Shown here in pieces: positions 3,103-47,895 of a stretch of 48,852 bases of DNA. The number at the start of each line of letters is the position of its first letter. The first letter of the stretch is position 1. The DNA comes from an uncultured Alphaproteobacteria bacterium (GTDB taxonomy: Bacteria; Pseudomonadota; Alphaproteobacteria; Paracaedibacterales; JAKBAR01), in assembly GCA_937896365.1 (NCBI GenBank), contig CALBMH010000046.1:1-48852 (forward strand). Direction: 5' to 3'. A model generated the notes under the pieces. The model did no database searches, was not told where the DNA came from, and saw nothing but the letters and a program-made list of their open reading frames with translations. The position numbers were made by a program, and so were the translations under genes.

Positions 3103-3849
3103 ATGCGTGTTCTTTTAATAGAGGATGACTCAGCAACAGCTAAAGTGCTTGAGGCGACTTTAAGATCCGAGGGCTTTGTTGTTGATATTACTGACCTTGG
3201 TGAGGATGGGCTGGAAATTGGCAAGATCTACGAATACGACGCTATTATTCTTGATCTCGTTTTGCCTGATATGAATGGTTATGAAGTTCTCAAGCGTTTA
3301 AGAGCATCACAAATTAGAACACCTATCCTTATTCTCTCTGGGCTTTCTGAAATTGATGACAAGGTTAAAGGTCTCGGTTTTGGTGCAGATGATTATCTAA
3401 CAAAGCCTTTCAATCGTGTGGAACTTTTGGCACGTGTTCATGCTATTGTGCGCCGCTCACGAGGACATTCAGAATCCATGATCCGTACGGGGCGTCTCCT
3501 TATCAATCTTCAAAGTCGCATCGCGAGTGTGGATGGAGTAGCGCTTCCTTTGACGGGAAAAGAATATGGTATTTTGGAGCTCTTATCTCTTCGCAAAGGC
3601 AATACACTCACAAAAGAAATGTTTTTGAACCATTTATACGGTGGGATGGATGAGCCTGAACTTAAGATTATTGACGTCTTCATTTGTAAACTACGCCGCA
3701 AACTCTCCGAAGCTCTTGGAACTGATGACTACGTCCAAACGGTATGGGGAAGGGGATATGTCTTGCGCGATCCACAAGTGGCTGTCGAAGAACATGTGAT
3801 GACAGCTTCTCTAAAGTCTTCCAAAAATCTAGAACAAATGGCAGGGTAA
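3103..3849 (+). CDS. ctrA: Cell-cycle master response regulator CtrA
   Basis: [13 protein letters not shown]...[17 protein letters not shown]...[33 protein letters not shown]...[11 protein letters not shown] is the CtrA signature. GAGGA RBS precedes ATG 3103. Confidence 0.96.
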
Positions 3850-3928: not shown

Positions 3929-4018
3929 GGATGGGTGGTCGAGTGGTTGAAGGCACCGGTCTTGAAAACCGGCAAGGGTGCAAGCTCTTCGTGGGTTCGA
4001 ATCCCACCCCATCCGCCA
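3929..4018 (+). tRNA. tRNA-Ser(TGA)
   Basis: Anticodon arm CCGGT-CTTGAAA-ACCGG, long variable arm, GGTTCGAATC T-loop, encoded CCA. Confidence 0.97.
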
Positions 4019-4122
4019 TTTTTATTTCCAATACAGTGTCTTTCGAGGTCAGTTAGGAGATTGTACATGAGGTTACTTTGAGACTTCATAGGATGTGGGA
4101 TAAACGGGAAGCAGTCCCCATA

Positions 4123-4707
4123 ATGTCTTGTACTCTAAACCCTTCGCCACACCATTTGTCTATTGAGTCAAAAAAGCATCGTGGTTATGTCGCCAGCATT
4201 GCAGGGAGAACCTACCGGTGTCTTGTGGGAAAGAAGGGGTTCCAATTAGCAAAAGATAAAGCTGAAGGAGATGGTTGTACACCTGTTGGGGTATTTCCTT
4301 TAAGACAACTTTTCTACAGACCTGATGTGTATGGAACAGGAGACTTAGTCACATCCCTTGAAACGCAGGTTATACAACCCTTTTTTGGGTGGTGTGACGC
4401 GTCTTCTCACCCAGACTATAACCGTTTGGTTGACTTGCGTCTGTTCGAGAAGGATATAAGTCACGAGAAAATGTGGCGTGAAGACCCTTTGTACAATATT
4501 GTGATCGCCATAGGCTATAACGATGATCCTGTTATAAAAGGGAAGGGAAGTGCGATTTTTATTCATCTTGCGCGTGAGGGGTACAGGGGGACGAGAGGCT
4601 GCATCGCCTTATCAGAATCTGATATGAGGGAAGTTATAACCTACCTATCACCAGGATCAATGATCGTCATTGAGGGGGAGACACCAAGCCCTAGTCTTCA
4701 ATCCTAG
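4123..4707 (+). CDS. L,D-transpeptidase (YkuD-like) family protein
   Basis: EGDGCTPVG, YND.PV..GKGSAIFIH and catalytic GTRGCIAL. Start uncertain (4078-4123). Confidence 0.88.
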   Translation: MSCTLNPSPHHLSIESKKHRGYVASIAGRTYRCLVGKKGFQLAKDKAEGDGCTPVGVFPLRQLFYRPDVYGTGDLVTSLETQVIQPFFGWCDASSHPDYNRLVDLRLFEKDISHEKMWREDPLYNIVIAIGYNDDPVIKGKGSAIFIHLAREGYRGTRGCIALSESDMREVITYLSPGSMIVIEGETPSPSLQS

Positions 4708-42663: not shown

Positions 42664-44412
42664 TCAATGTTTGTAATCCACTGTTTTCTTTAGTGTCCTT
42701 TGATTCATACTGACGGATATGTCCTTAATTGATCCGATTATTTTTCCCTGATGATCCAGAAGGGTTGCGTTTTCATCAAACATGGCTCCTTTTTTGATAA
42801 GGGATGATACTCCGTATTTAAGGTTTTCAGGTTTAGGTGCATAGTGTCCGCTATTGGTGTTCATCATGATAATCGCATTGTTTTTAAACTGAATTTCTCC
42901 TGCACAAAGAGCATTAGCGCCACCAAGAATAATTGAGTGGATCACACGATTATTAAAATCATTAAAAGGGATTTTGTACGTATCAATAGCAAGTTGTTCA
43001 ATTTTTTCTATTTGCTGCTTCACCAAATCAGGGGCGCTGCTTACACTTGATCTCGCACCGGTGTGAATATAGAGTTGGCCGCGTTCATCAATGGCATAGA
43101 GATAAAGACCATCAAGAACTTTCCCTTCATCGTCTTTGAACACTTTATGATAAGGGATCTTATTTTTAAATAGCACGTGCATATCTTTTAGGGGGATAAG
43201 GCGACGTGGGTCAACCGTCATACTAAAGGTAGGTTTATCCTCTAGCCAAAGGAAATAAGCGAATTTCGACGATGTTTTTGCATAGTCTTTATACTCCATT
43301 ACGTCTGAACGCTTTGCTGGATCAAGGTCTACGGGGATGTCCTGCACCACTTTTGATCGGATGACTTTGTCGTGTTTTTTGTCCATGTTTTTAAACAGCG
43401 TGGCTTTTTCAGAATCTCGTCTTCTTTCAATCTTCTCAGTGGCCATCAGCTTCATTAGATAAGAGGCTTTGGCCTTTGCATTGTTTTTCAGGAGATTTAG
43501 TGTGTAAAACTGTGCTGGGTTGAGCTTTTCTGTTATTTCTTTGCTGAGCAAAAGGTGCTCTGCCTCATCAGCAATGTTGAAGAGTGCATGACTACGCTCC
43601 ACAAGCAGTTCTTTGTTTGTCTTGTCAAGTTGATGGTAATCCTGAACGTGTGCTTTTAAACTTGAGAAGGCAGGCGTGTGGGGTAGACGACCCAAAGCAG
43701 CCTGAGCTATTTTTGAAGCAAACTGTGAATGGGTCTTTAAAAATTCAGGAGACACAGGGCGTTTGGGGCCAAAATAAAATCCTACGGGCGCAATATCATA
43801 CCAAATACGCTCCGGCGTCCACTGTGGTAGAAAACACCGATTATCAACGCACACAATTCCCATATCATGCACTGTATCAAAGTCCTCTTGGTAGGCTTTC
43901 AGGTACTTTATGCGCTCCTCCATCAAGGATTTTAAGATGGTATAGGTATAATAAAACTTCCATTCAAAAAGTGCAGAGAAAGGAGGATTATTGGCGAGGA
44001 TTTTTTCAATGGACCATGAGTTACTCATCCTTTCATGCTCTAAATGGCTGCTACTGTCAATAAAATCCTGTTCTCTCATAAAGTTCTCATAAGTTTCAAT
44101 TTCAAAGGATGCTGGCTTCATGATTTTTATAAAGGACAATGACTCAAAAAAATCCTCATATCCCTGGAAAAGTCCATTAAGTGGCTGCAGATTTTTTTGG
44201 TTTAACCCGTGACTGGGATGCCAGTTTTTGAGAGTCGCTAAAAATATGTTGTCTTTATCTTTCGGCGTTGGGGATTTCATCACAGCCTCATACAAGGCCG
44301 ATGGCCACCATTCATACTGTTCGACGCCTTTGTAGGTATAATCCGAAGCGTAGGCATGCACCATTAACATGATGGCGAAGCTTGGTGGTGCTAGAACTGA
44401 CTTGAAAGACAT
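42664..44412 (-). CDS. Hypothetical, probably secreted protein with C-terminal IQM-like / SGHY domain (candidate effector or toxin)
   Basis: Signal-like MSFKSVLAPPSFAIMLMVHAYA. C-terminal LDP.KR...FAYFLWLE...YLYAID...LYI...IHSIILGG...AGEI....I....TNSGHY.P..ENL. Confidence 0.7.
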   Translation of the reverse strand: MSFKSVLAPPSFAIMLMVHAYASDYTYKGVEQYEWWPSALYEAVMKSPTPKDKDNIFLATLKNWHPSHGLNQKNLQPLNGLFQGYEDFFESLSFIKIMKPASFEIETYENFMREQDFIDSSSHLEHERMSNSWSIEKILANNPPFSALFEWKFYYTYTILKSLMEERIKYLKAYQEDFDTVHDMGIVCVDNRCFLPQWTPERIWYDIAPVGFYFGPKRPVSPEFLKTHSQFASKIAQAALGRLPHTPAFSSLKAHVQDYHQLDKTNKELLVERSHALFNIADEAEHLLLSKEITEKLNPAQFYTLNLLKNNAKAKASYLMKLMATEKIERRRDSEKATLFKNMDKKHDKVIRSKVVQDIPVDLDPAKRSDVMEYKDYAKTSSKFAYFLWLEDKPTFSMTVDPRRLIPLKDMHVLFKNKIPYHKVFKDDEGKVLDGLYLYAIDERGQLYIHTGARSSVSSAPDLVKQQIEKIEQLAIDTYKIPFNDFNNRVIHSIILGGANALCAGEIQFKNNAIIMMNTNSGHYAPKPENLKYGVSSLIKKGAMFDENATLLDHQGKIIGSIKDISVSMNQRTLKKTVDYKH

Positions 44413-44620: not shown

Positions 44621-44711
44621 GGAGAGGTGGCCGAGTGGTCGAAGGCGCACGATTGGAAATCGTGTATACGCTAATCCCGTATCGAGGGTTCGAATCCCTC
44701 TCTCTCCGCCA
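44621..44711 (+). tRNA. tRNA-Ser(GGA)
   Basis: Anticodon arm CACGA-TTGGAAA-TCGTG, long variable arm, CCA. Confidence 0.97.
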
Positions 44712-44811
44712 GTTTACAACGCTCGAACTTTTTGGGCGTCATTTTTCAAGTTCACAAACCACCCTCAGAACCCCAGTATTCATAGGCTTTAGAGCCTTTT
44801 AGTCGTCCGAC

Positions 44812-44919
44812 ACATGCGTACCTAGAGAATCGCAAAATCACCGATTTCACCCCAAAATCTCTCTTTTTACTCTCCGTTTCTCCGTTAGATGCGAACGTCG
44901 GTCGTCAAGGTACGCATGT
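44812..44919. repeat. 12-bp perfect inverted repeat
   Basis: ACATGCGTACCT (44812-44823) and AGGTACGCATGT (44908-44919). Confidence 0.8.
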
Positions 44920-44991
44920 CCAGAACCCTTGAATTTACTGGGTTTTTATAAAACTGGTCTCGAGGTTCGTTATTGGGGCGGAGAATGGCGC

Positions 44992-45014
44992 ATGTACCCG
45001 CAGAGCGAGATTTT
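44992..45014 (+). repeat. 23-bp direct repeat, copy 1
   Basis: ATGTACCCGCAGAGCGAGATTTT; 22/23 identical to 46469-46491. Confidence 0.9.
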
Positions 45015-45061
45015 GATAAAAAGTACTTGCTTTTTTGTCGATTTTCATGTTTACTGAAGTA

Positions 45062-45154
45062 ATGAAATACGCACGCACAAACAAAATTTTTCGATTTAGC
45101 GGCCTCTTGAACCGATCCGGGTTTCAAGGGCATGGCGTATTTTTATCTAATTAA
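45062..45154 (+). CDS. Putative leader peptide (uORF), 30 aa with 4 Phe
   Basis: MKYARTNKIFRFSGLLNRSGFQGHGVFLSN*. Starts about 6 nt after a TTGCTT-17-TTTACT promoter-like element, so possibly leaderless. Confidence 0.3.
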   Translation: MKYARTNKIFRFSGLLNRSGFQGHGVFLSN

Positions 45155-45180
45155 AATTCCCCAATCCTGTCTTCTGAAAT

Positions 45181-45268
45181 CTTCTCGGCTCGGTCAAGAG
45201 GCGAACTTTGAATTTGTTTCGCATTATCGACATCGGTAATGCCTCTAACCAACTTTAAAGCCGAGAGG
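45181..45268 (+). promoter_or_regulatory. Structured cis-regulatory RNA sequestering the SD of the PheS-like gene
   Basis: CTTCTCGGCT pairs with AGCCGAGAGG (covers the SD). Inner helices AGAGGC/GCCTCT, GCGAA/TTCGC and GCATTATCG/CGGTAATGC. Confidence 0.6.
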
Positions 45269-45274
45269 TAAAAA

Positions 45275-46408
45275 ATGACTATCAAAAAAATCAGTATGGA
45301 GCAACTGAGATATGCTCTGAATTTACGTGACTTATCTAATCCAAAGGATGGACATCATGCTATACAGCTTTTGATGCAGGCTATCTTAAAAGCCCTTGAA
45401 GATGCCTGGGAATGTAATATCAAAATTCACAGAGAAAGCCCCATTGTCTCAATTGCAGATAACTACGACCGATTGAATTACCCGAAAGATGGCGCCTCCA
45501 GAAATGTGAGATATACCCGCTATGTCTGCGATACTGCGCTACTGAGAACGCAGGCTTCGGCTATGGTGCCTAATGCCATGCAAGAAATTTCCGATAATAT
45601 GCCAGGCGATGTTTTGATTGCATTACCAGGGTTGACTTATCGCAGGGACTGCGTAGACCGTATTCACTCCGCAGAACCTCACCATCTTGATCTGTGGCGT
45701 TTAAAAAAGGACAGTAAGCTAAACGATAATGACTTGATAGAAATGATTACACTCTGGATGGACGCGGTTTTGCCTGGGATAAAATGGAAAGTTACACCGA
45801 GCCAGCATCCTTACACGCTTAACGGTGTGCAGATTGATGCGCTGTGGAACGAAGAATGGATTGAGATCGGAGAATGCGGTTTGGCTCATCCCGAAATTAT
45901 CAAAGCAAATATTGCCAATTCTGAAGGAATATCCGGCTTAGCTATGGGGTTAGGTCTCGACAGAATTCTAATGGTGAAAAAGAATATTCCAGATATTCGA
46001 TTGATTCGCTCAACTGATCCCCGTGTTCTAGATCAGATGAATGATTTAGCGCCATATAAGCCAGTTTCGTCTATGCCACCAGTCACACGCGATTTATCAA
46101 TTGTTTTGGATGACCACATCAATGATGATGATATTGGTGATGTTGTACGGGAATCTTTAGGTGAAACCTCTGACATTGTGGAAGTTGTGAAAACAATGTC
46201 AGAAACCGCATATGAAGAATTACCCGATCAAGCAAAAAAACGGCTTGGAATTCAACCCGGACAAAAGAACATTTTACTGAGAGTAATTTTGCGCGATTTA
46301 GGTAGAACGCTTACCACCGAAGAATGTAATCAATATCGAGACATTATATACGCTGCTCTCCACAAAGGCACAGAGTGGCATTGGGCATCAAAAGAACCTG
46401 ATAAATAA
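45275..46408 (+). CDS. srmL: Monomeric PheS-related ligase (PheRS-alpha catalytic core plus C-terminal FDX-ACB), resembling the 'PheS-related mystery ligase SrmL' family
   Basis: NYD.L..P....SR...T.Y....LLRTQ.SA, motif 2 GLTYRRD.VDRIH, EIGECGLAHP, motif 3 GLAMGLGLDRILM, FDX-ACB PPVTRDLSIV...YR/LR...RTLT.EE. Family name recalled, not searched. Confidence 0.85.
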   Translation: MTIKKISMEQLRYALNLRDLSNPKDGHHAIQLLMQAILKALEDAWECNIKIHRESPIVSIADNYDRLNYPKDGASRNVRYTRYVCDTALLRTQASAMVPNAMQEISDNMPGDVLIALPGLTYRRDCVDRIHSAEPHHLDLWRLKKDSKLNDNDLIEMITLWMDAVLPGIKWKVTPSQHPYTLNGVQIDALWNEEWIEIGECGLAHPEIIKANIANSEGISGLAMGLGLDRILMVKKNIPDIRLIRSTDPRVLDQMNDLAPYKPVSSMPPVTRDLSIVLDDHINDDDIGDVVRESLGETSDIVEVVKTMSETAYEELPDQAKKRLGIQPGQKNILLRVILRDLGRTLTTEECNQYRDIIYAALHKGTEWHWASKEPDK

Positions 46409-46427
46409 TTGCTAGATACGCGCTAGC

Positions 46428-46461
46428 TCTCACTCTGAAGTATTGTTCTCTGAGGGTGAGA
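46428..46461 (+). terminator. Stem-loop downstream of the PheS-like gene
   Basis: TCTCACTCT pairs with AGGGTGAGA (one G:U), preceded by a GCTAG/CTAGC hairpin at 46411-46427. Confidence 0.35.
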
Positions 46462-46468
46462 TCGTTGT

Positions 46469-46491
46469 ATGTACCCGCAGAACGAGATTTT
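46469..46491 (+). repeat. 23-bp direct repeat, copy 2
   Basis: ATGTACCCGCAGAACGAGATTTT, followed immediately by CTGCTG-17-TAAAAT with an extended -10 TG. Confidence 0.9.
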
Positions 46492-46618
46492 TCTGCTGAA
46501 ATACACCTAATGTGGTAAAATTATACTAGGGAATCCTTAGGTTAATCAGTGAGTTATTTGGTTAAATGATGGTTCATTTCAGGTTCTGTGAGGGCTATAA
46601 ATAAAATGAGGATACAGT

Positions 46619-47128
46619 ATGCAAGTAGAAGTAGTTAAAGCCACCATAGAACAGAAGCCCGTGCTGGCTAATCTATTAGAATTATACGCTTATGACTTCA
46701 CAGAATTTTGTGACTTTGATCTTGGTGACGATGGTTTTTATGGATATGAGCGCCTGCCTTTGTATTGGACAGAGTCAAATCGCTTTCCCTATTTGATTTA
46801 CGTTGACAAGAAAATAGCTGGGTTTATCTTGGTGCAAAAGGGATCGCCCATTTCAGATGATACAACGGTTTGGGATATTTCTGAATTTTTTGTCATGAAA
46901 AAATATAAGCGGCACGGTGTTGGTACTGCAGCTGTTTTGAAGATATGGGAGCAATTTAAAGGCCCATGGCAAGTCAGGGTATTGGTGAGCAATCCAATAG
47001 CTTGTTCATTTTGGTTACGGGCCATTAAAAATTTTACTTTAGAAGCCCCTGCTAAAACTGAGGCAACGATTAAAGAAGAGGACTGGATTATTTACACATT
47101 TGAATCAAAAGATAGGAGCAGCCTATGA
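46619..47128 (+). CDS. GNAT family N-acetyltransferase
   Basis: LANLLELY.YDF.EF, ISEFFVMKKYKRHGVG acetyl-CoA motif, N..A..FW. GAGGA RBS. Confidence 0.9.
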   Translation: MQVEVVKATIEQKPVLANLLELYAYDFTEFCDFDLGDDGFYGYERLPLYWTESNRFPYLIYVDKKIAGFILVQKGSPISDDTTVWDISEFFVMKKYKRHGVGTAAVLKIWEQFKGPWQVRVLVSNPIACSFWLRAIKNFTLEAPAKTEATIKEEDWIIYTFESKDRSSL

Positions 47129-47895
47129 ACGCTCCATTAACAAATTTATACCGCCAAGCCGAAGACTATTTTTTCAGAGGCATTTCCTCAAAATGTTTGG
47201 ATCTGGACGACGGTGCTCATGCTTATATGACCGGTGGCGCGGAACTCAATTTTATTTACATTACACGAAACACAAACGCTCTGGATAAAATTTTAATCCA
47301 AGGCAAGCAGTTTTTCGACCAGGATAACCGTTCTTTTGATGTGATCATTCCACAAGAATTATGCAGGTCTCAAATAGCAGATGTTTTAAACACCATGGGT
47401 TACCCTCAGAAAAGCAAATCCGTTTCAATGGTTGTGGACCTAGATAGATTTGCAATGGACAAAACTGCGAGTTTTGATTCTGAAACTATGGTCAAACCGA
47501 ATGATGATCAATTAAATGACTGGATGATTCCATTGATAGGCGCATTTGAATCAACGATTGAAATTTGTAGGGTCTATGCAGGCACCCATGATAATGCTTT
47601 AAAACGGAATCTTAATCTTCGCCATTTCAGCTTATACAAACAGGAGCAACCAATAGCATCAATCACCCTATCAATGTGTGACAACACCATTGGAAGGATA
47701 GACGACGTGGGCACTCTGCCTGCGTTTCAAGGCAAAGGCTATGCAAGCACGCTCATGCGTTACGTATTATTAGAAGCAAAAAAATTAGGCGCTCGTCATT
47801 GCTTTTTGGAATCATCTGATTCAGGACTTGGAGTCTACCAAAAACTTGGGTTTGAGACCCTCTTTAAAAACAATATTTATTCGAGAGAAAAATGA
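47125..47895 (+). CDS. GNAT family N-acetyltransferase
   Basis: IDDVGTLPAFQGKGYA motif A, VYQKLGF. ATGA overlap with the upstream GNAT. Confidence 0.9.
   Translation: MNAPLTNLYRQAEDYFFRGISSKCLDLDDGAHAYMTGGAELNFIYITRNTNALDKILIQGKQFFDQDNRSFDVIIPQELCRSQIADVLNTMGYPQKSKSVSMVVDLDRFAMDKTASFDSETMVKPNDDQLNDWMIPLIGAFESTIEICRVYAGTHDNALKRNLNLRHFSLYKQEQPIASITLSMCDNTIGRIDDVGTLPAFQGKGYASTLMRYVLLEAKKLGARHCFLESSDSGLGVYQKLGFETLFKNNIYSREK

Follow-up and report, generated by a model that had tools for sequence, protein, structure and literature searches.

Organization of the tRNA-Ser island

The window, by which we mean the whole 48,852-nucleotide stretch of contig CALBMH010000046.1 from an uncultured alphaproteobacterium, carries downstream of a tRNA-Ser gene a conserved left arm, a lone gene for a PheS-related ligase (srmL), and a unit of two GNAT acetyltransferases and an APH-family phosphotransferase (Table 1). 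No phage genes are present in the window, and an Rfam search of it returned only tRNA over cut-off. An ORF of ~580 aa without a Pfam match (42664-44412, minus strand) lies between tRNA-Gly and tRNA-Ser. The product of srmL scores 484.7 bits against the SrmL model NF051887 (cut-off 300). From the sequence it is likely that the short ORF and the folding leader ahead of srmL form an attenuator for this PheS-like gene; a similar short ORF with Phe codons precedes a 74% srmL homolog at another locus (L048, 1728-1835).

Table 1 Features of the tRNA-Ser island, with positions in the window
Feature	Position	Strand	Evidence
tRNA-Ser(GGA), integration target	44621-44711	+	ARAGORN; Rfam
Predicted attL: T-loop motif, 12 nt, central TC (44705-44706), 17 nt, element-side motif	44688-44728	+	Comparison of 20 attL and 14 far-end sequences; geometry inferred from PMC3783163 (excerpt)
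Conserved ~300-bp left arm with nested inverted repeats	44712-45014	+	86-93% identity in 13/13 GTDB motif matches; DNA fold z -2.66
Repeat copy 1, forming the arm's terminal block; divergence of cargo starts there or a few bases beyond	44992-45014	+	
srmL 5' region: 30-aa Phe-containing short ORF (45062-45154) and strongly folding leader	45062-45230	+	z -4.69
srmL, PheS-related ligase, only gene of the inserted 1477-bp unit	45275-46408	+	NF051887 over cut-off; PF01409 and PF03147
Weak hairpin closing the unit, the extended similarity (41 bp) overlapping its right arm	46428-46462	+	z -1.0, not significant
Repeat copy 2, likely remnant of an older element's arm	46469-46491	+	Reading proposed here
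Conserved start of the GNAT/APH cargo unit; adjoins the arm directly in 9 related contexts	46492-46570	+	
GNAT acetyltransferase 1	46619-47128	+	PF00583
GNAT acetyltransferase 2	47125-47895	+	PF00583
APH-family phosphotransferase, cut by the contig end	47921-48852	+	APH(9)-Ia-like, yet under its cut-off

A 23-bp repeat brackets srmL and closes a conserved arm

A first-pass annotation of this DNA had reported a 23-bp sequence at 44992 and again at 46469, and the pair was borne out: the copies lie on the plus strand, are identical at 22/23 positions and are spaced 1477 bp apart. Chance matches to the repeat were absent from 100 shuffles, and a direct repeat of at least 22/23 appeared in 0/300 shuffles of the island. 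Weaker similarity continues to the left of the 23-bp repeat, for a total of 41 bp at 78%. The pair is not an assembly slip, because contigs from other runs bridge the junctions of both copy 1 (runs X2 and X9) and copy 2 (X2, X4, and X9) with up to ~3% variation; the X2 contig is identical to the window and could come from the same strain. When further copies were sought, direct or inverted and with up to four mismatches, no third was found in the 1.25-Mb, 82-contig genome.

The bracketed segment does have the stated size (~1.48 kb) and a ligase as its sole gene, and it was rightly described as lacking attC-like structure, the regions around copy 1 (z 0.13) and copy 2 (z -1.12) folding like shuffled sequence. 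Two other details of the annotation were not confirmed. A promoter-like element had been placed behind each copy, and a consensus sigma-70 scan gave 6 sites against 4.6 expected, none of them behind either copy; the hairpin noted ahead of copy 2 is no more strongly folded than shuffled sequence (z about -1).

Comparison with other genomes shows that the 23-bp repeat is the conserved terminal block of a ~300-bp left arm belonging to a tRNA-Ser-linked mobile element family. An exact-pattern scan of GTDB contigs retrieved 13 loci, each with the motif once and each with that motif closing the same arm (13/13; identity 86-93%). A tRNA-Ser gene stands directly upstream of the arm in 10 of the 13, the remaining 3 beginning at a contig end, and tRNA-Ser genes of all four anticodon types serve as targets. 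Among 25 distinct site contexts (15 of which were used to train the site-context profile), the motif closes a full arm end in 22; of these, 9 then enter the sequence found downstream of copy 2, 11 a second type of sequence, and 2 others. The three contexts without a full arm end are copy 2 of the window, a copy in a related genome (G503), and a collapsed single arm in G013. In nine arms the sequence found after copy 2 comes next without a break, which makes the 1477-bp srmL unit an insert.

Prophages, mini-islands, and the predicted crossover site

Prophages of ~52 kb are present in two genomes (G016 and G468); each begins at tRNA-Ser plus arm, and its far end consists of a conserved right arm followed by the tRNA 3' tail. 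Both encode a large serine recombinase (Resolvase, Recombinase, and Zn-ribbon domains), a DUF2924 protein, and a small ORF; the G016 prophage further encodes LexA-like and YqaJ-like proteins (the YqaJ match being weak, 22.8 bits against a cut-off of 22), gpA terminase, portal, capsid, PAAR, tail sheath, and GH108 proteins. The best phage matches of the family recombinase are WO recombinases (46-47%) and that of AcaML1 (45.6%). Recombinase-less islands of ~1.7, 1.8, 3.3, and 8 kb (G732, G783, G815, and G496) are closed by the same right end.

Alignment of the ends shows a GTT motif whose distance from a central TC is 12 nt in the tRNA and 17 nt in each of the two element arms. Among rows that were selected by pattern, this 12 versus 17 nt spacing about TC holds in 19/20 attL sequences, one being 1 bp longer, and in 14/14 right arms, 2 of which have a changed centre. 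A 5-bp shift of the distal motif between attB and attP is described for serine integrases (PMC3783163, excerpt). Element ends that fall at the tRNA-Ser 3' end with serine-integrase spacing imply that the true crossover likely lies ~290 bp to the left of copy 1, and in the window it is accordingly predicted at the central TC (Table 1), in the tRNA gene and not in the repeat. The proposal that the 23-mer is the crossover site of every cassette is not upheld, since the element ends map to the tRNA 3' end and most cargo boundaries are without a copy.

The recombinase is complete in G016 and G468, was recognized by similarity in G647, and is partial in G503, G462, and G1204. A linked recombinase is thus found in relatives and is absent from the window's own genome, where no PF07508 or PF00239 match occurs in the 82 contigs. 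That genome does contain the recombinase companion ORF, on contig C7 (87% to that of G468). The first 1850 bp of C7 comprise an MFS fragment, the companion ORF, and a prs-like gene at the contig start, without a recombinase, and may be the far end of the island; synteny gave no link between C7 and the window's contig C46. The two PF00589 genes of the window's genome lie on other contigs and match XerD/XerC best. With no serine recombinase and only XerC/XerD-like tyrosine recombinases to hand, the window's island is likely inert unless a helper phage arrives.

Some smaller features of these elements were also seen. Compared with the phage body, the segment of att site plus arm has opposite orientations in the prophages of G016 (C1 ~293000-345300) and G468 (C1 ~53400-104450), and an inverted copper-oxidase block lies beside the second arm of G468. 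For one type of right arm, such as that at L107 (~3575-3610), a near-consensus sigma-70 promoter seen by eye lies upstream and points into the att site.

Stacking at tRNA-Ser and forms without srmL

Modules had been suspected of stacking at tRNA-Ser, and relatives do carry tandem stacks: intact junctions of right arm, att site, and second arm lie downstream of tRNA and arm in four genomes (G965, G1232, G1056, and G1204). G1204 alone has five right-arm junctions in the same direction, delimiting units of ~2.9, 4.8, 1.5, 3.3, and 14 kb; a full arm follows two of these junctions, only the arm start two, and no arm the fifth. This five-unit stack (L192/L193, G1204:C2) stands behind tRNA-Ser(CGA), and an extra, inverted right arm is found 370 bp past its last junction.

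Content between the copies also varies among relatives, and a form without the srmL unit exists: two runs gave one contig each that skips it (45010 to 46487 and 44986 to 46469). A loose end at 45011 in a further run (X16) may be a chance match of 35 bp and is left out of account. These contigs probably represent sister elements and not excision in the window's genome. The backward joint expected of an excised ~1477-bp circle did not appear in the contigs of 7 runs, contigs being prone to drop rare forms. A second bracketed arrangement exists in G503, where an internal copy follows a MarR-SnoaL module 1.06 kb behind the first copy, and bracketing therefore arose at least twice; the variants of this internal copy are those of the unit behind it and unlike those of the arm ahead. 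In a profile scan of 36 island loci G503 gave the only internal copy above background, together with weak second-arm ends in G468 and G460, while a degenerate copy at L011 scores below background and is counted as a hint only.

The motif is present ahead of the GNAT/APH unit in related contexts and absent from the two other srmL loci retrieved, one from a metagenome scan and one from 400 other genomes of the class (1/400). No srmL element with intact ends of its own was found.

Origin of the second copy

We suggest, at a probability of about 0.6, that copy 2 is the leftover of an older element's arm, after a newer srmL element had stacked in front of it, and that the repeat as it now stands in the window is probably a scar. 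The phage-encoded large serine recombinase would join the attP of a circle to the tRNA-Ser 3' end at the central TC and could use an occupied tRNA again, so that new units would land beside the tRNA, recombinase-less mini-islands being moved in trans. An older GNAT/APH element would have been first at the tRNA, and the newer srmL element would have entered in front of it. A later deletion would then have taken the right end of the newer unit, the att junction, and ~260 bp of the older arm, leaving 23-41 bp. Lacking a right end and an att junction, the srmL unit is likely fixed in place and would be removable only by recombination between the two short repeats.

Several results speak against this reading, among them the lack of an srmL element with intact ends and of a serine recombinase in the window's genome. 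No sign of a right arm or att junction is detectable between srmL and copy 2 (195/300 shuffles score as well), and the flank of copy 2 is not significantly arm-like (97/500 shuffles); nor is the flank of the G503 copy alone (332/500), although that of its sister L011 is (7/500). Moreover, the starting points of the two clean internal copies, those of the window and G503, almost coincide, ~20 bp to the left of the motif; this counts against erosion because random deletion does not predict it. This shared start, together with the missing arm remnant left of copy 2, keeps a second, site-specific process alive.

In such a process the block that ends the arm would itself serve as an additional recombination site, independent of the first, at which modules with a copy of their own insert site-specifically, as cassettes do at attI. 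Apart from the common start of the internal copies, it would account for the frequent change of cargo no more than a few bases from the 3' end of the motif; the arm end also contains an inverted 8-bp copy of the tRNA tail and, in 18/22 arms, an attP-like spacing (GTTCG-17-GG-17-CGAGA) that was noticed after the fact, and arms with the terminal block accompany a single recombinase clade (88-94% to that of G468). We nevertheless hold this to be unlikely. The spacer is 1 bp longer in 4/22 arms and its centre varies, copy 2 of the window has a different centre and no matching left motif, and islands of 4-9 cargo genes show no further copy above background. The MarR-SnoaL module bracketed in G503 lacks the right-hand copy in G046 and both copies on contig C18 of the window's genome, and the missing circle joint, with the reservation given above, points the same way. 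In a wider version, a serine recombinase of WO-type phages would operate a two-tier platform for gene capture that host-associated bacteria of different phyla have in common. Whole mini-cassettes would stack at the 3' end of tRNA-Ser, and single modules, srmL for instance, would enter at a differently centred arm-end site marked by the 23-bp repeat. This version is likewise speculative, and we give it a low chance of being right.

Related elements may instead have exchanged their cargo through homologous or microhomology recombination at the arm end they have in common, which would have duplicated the block without any tandem arrangement at the tRNA. The cargo behind the arm is a mosaic in which genes are gained and lost one at a time and are not separated by sites, and blocks are inverted between the two prophages, one breakpoint falling at the second arm of G468, all of which suits exchange by homology. 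An equal crossover, however, replaces cargo and does not duplicate the block, so that a second, illegitimate join would be needed, whereas the tandem stacks actually observed are a ready source of second arms; we consider this route improbable.

That the motif is purely a regulator-binding or promoter element ahead of each transcription unit, another suggestion of the first-pass annotation, is very improbable. All 3 sites without a full arm end do precede the GNAT/APH unit, whose expression the block may aid, but the motif travels with the mobile arm and has no other copy in the host genome, is lacking at the two other srmL loci, and is followed by no consensus promoter at either copy; its origin would also be left unexplained. 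Tandem ends of an IS481/Tn7/Mu-type transposon, proposed since the core begins with TGT, can practically be dismissed, as the genome contains no inverted partner, the unit carries no transposase, and the motif is fixed at the arm end in 22/25 contexts.

Comparison with known systems

On the traits tested, the helper prophage fits the proposed genus Undavirus of the Symbioviridae, relatives of phage WO (PMC9203015, excerpt), with which the G016 prophage shares the large serine recombinase and PAAR, LexA-like, YqaJ-like, GH108, gpA terminase, and tail sheath proteins; with WO, the recombinase alone was compared. The main text of that paper has 0 occurrences of tRNA and gives genes or intergenic sites as WO targets; a conserved 300-bp arm, satellites, and tandem stacks are not described in the excerpt. 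Acidithiobacillus phage AcaML1 has the same order at its genome end (small recombinase subunit, large subunit at 45.6%, two small ORFs). It differs in its target, the attB being given as 'srrA' with a 10-bp repeat (PMC3826726, excerpt), which we read as ssrA, and by eye its ends are without a copy of the arm or motif.

In its working the family resembles SCC composite islands and tycheposon stacks. SCC/SCCmec and the Enterococcus cassette chromosome (PMC6222049 and PMC10581047, excerpts) likewise combine a large serine recombinase and one fixed chromosomal site with multiple att sites and variable cargo; those islands use Ccr and target rlmH or rimL, whereas the family here targets tRNA-Ser and is carried by a tailed prophage. 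Membership of the Ccr group fails, the family recombinase scoring far below the Ccr cut-offs (CcrB 160 bits against 900). As in tycheposons (bioRxiv 10.1101/2020.12.28.424599, excerpt) and other tRNA-targeted islands (Islander, PMC4383910, excerpt), the tRNA is restored on entry, junctions occur in tandem, and cargo islands may lack a recombinase. Tycheposons, in contrast, mostly use tyrosine recombinases (910/937 tycheposon-type elements). The Islander paper of 2014 states, in the excerpt cited, that serine integrases were not known at tRNA genes; exceptions exist, a later one being Paracoccus phage Pami6 at tRNA-Met (PMC6536676, excerpt).

Integrons with their IntI/attI/attC system offer a further parallel, in that the newest module stands beside a fixed platform and the cargo is of GNAT, APH, and MarR type. 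The array was correctly called non-integron, as it has no integron integrase, no site per cassette, and no attC fold, and the family is not a member of that group; the two PF00589 genes of the window's genome reach 122 and 81 bits against integron-integrase models (cut-off 265), the second being a 168-aa part.

No description of the arm, the motif, or a tRNA-Ser target was found in the literature searched, which left out most subscription papers. To that extent the family appears undescribed: serine-recombinase prophages and small satellite cassettes that target, and stack at, tRNA-Ser genes with any of the four anticodon types. The attP/attB pair predicted here lends itself to a direct test, and a serine integrase that needs only the conserved tRNA-Ser end could become a genetic tool for symbionts that have none.

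Spread and variation of the arm

Across Alphaproteobacteria, Gammaproteobacteria, and the chlamydial phylum, the arm is 80-93% identical. It was present, whole or in part, in 11/62 genomes of the host's order, in 13/205 of the order of a Legionella-titled genome, in 10/36 of the order of a Coxiellaceae-titled genome, in 10/200 of the phylum of a Chlamydiae-titled genome, in 7/41 of another order, and in 11/300 across a class sample, where the centre genome is counted in each tally, record titles are those of the submitters and may reflect mis-binning, and those tallies to which the unscored genomes G715, G864, and G974 belong are lower bounds. Such similarity across phyla suggests recent exchange, likely inside shared protist hosts, and the host of the window presumably has a protist-associated lifestyle. 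Such exchange, if real, would give GNAT/APH, metal-efflux, and toxin-antitoxin cargo a concrete way of passing between these bacteria. In keeping with an alphaproteobacterial host, the window's genome has a two-piece tmRNA.

Viral contigs held no match for the motif, srmL, or the right arm; the arm pattern matched 2 of them, neither with a tRNA or recombinase and only one with a 38-bp match, and no match for the arm was found in plasmids or GenBank phages. The arm more likely holds DNA binding sites than an RNA structure, among them boxes that we take to be candidate IHF-like sites. A structured RNA is not supported for the arm, the covariation term being -0.08 kcal/mol across 16 arms and the long stems invariant or broken, and a minihelix formed by right arm and tRNA tail was rejected (z -1.8 to +0.4 in 4/4).

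Arms are often truncated or internally deleted. G1198 and G013 have lost the middle and kept the terminal block, and the second arm of G468 begins at position 31 with no right arm ahead of it. In the window's genome, 3/4 tRNA-Ser genes have such an arm behind them; two tRNA-Ser genes there besides that of the window carry an identical start of a second arm type (G000 C23 end, C60 end, C74, and C18), and C74, which overlaps C18, runs on into APH and thereafter MarR and SnoaL. At L013 (10862-11096), in an assembly that looks error-rich, an attP-like join of right and left arm lies inverted 1 kb behind the first arm. Between tRNA and arm, L011 has two tandem ~163-bp repeats (3937-4355) with tRNA-tail-like ends, and L022 and L024 have a GIY-YIG gene, flanked by hairpins, as an insertion separating tRNA-Ser from the arm, a similar gene following attR in G016.
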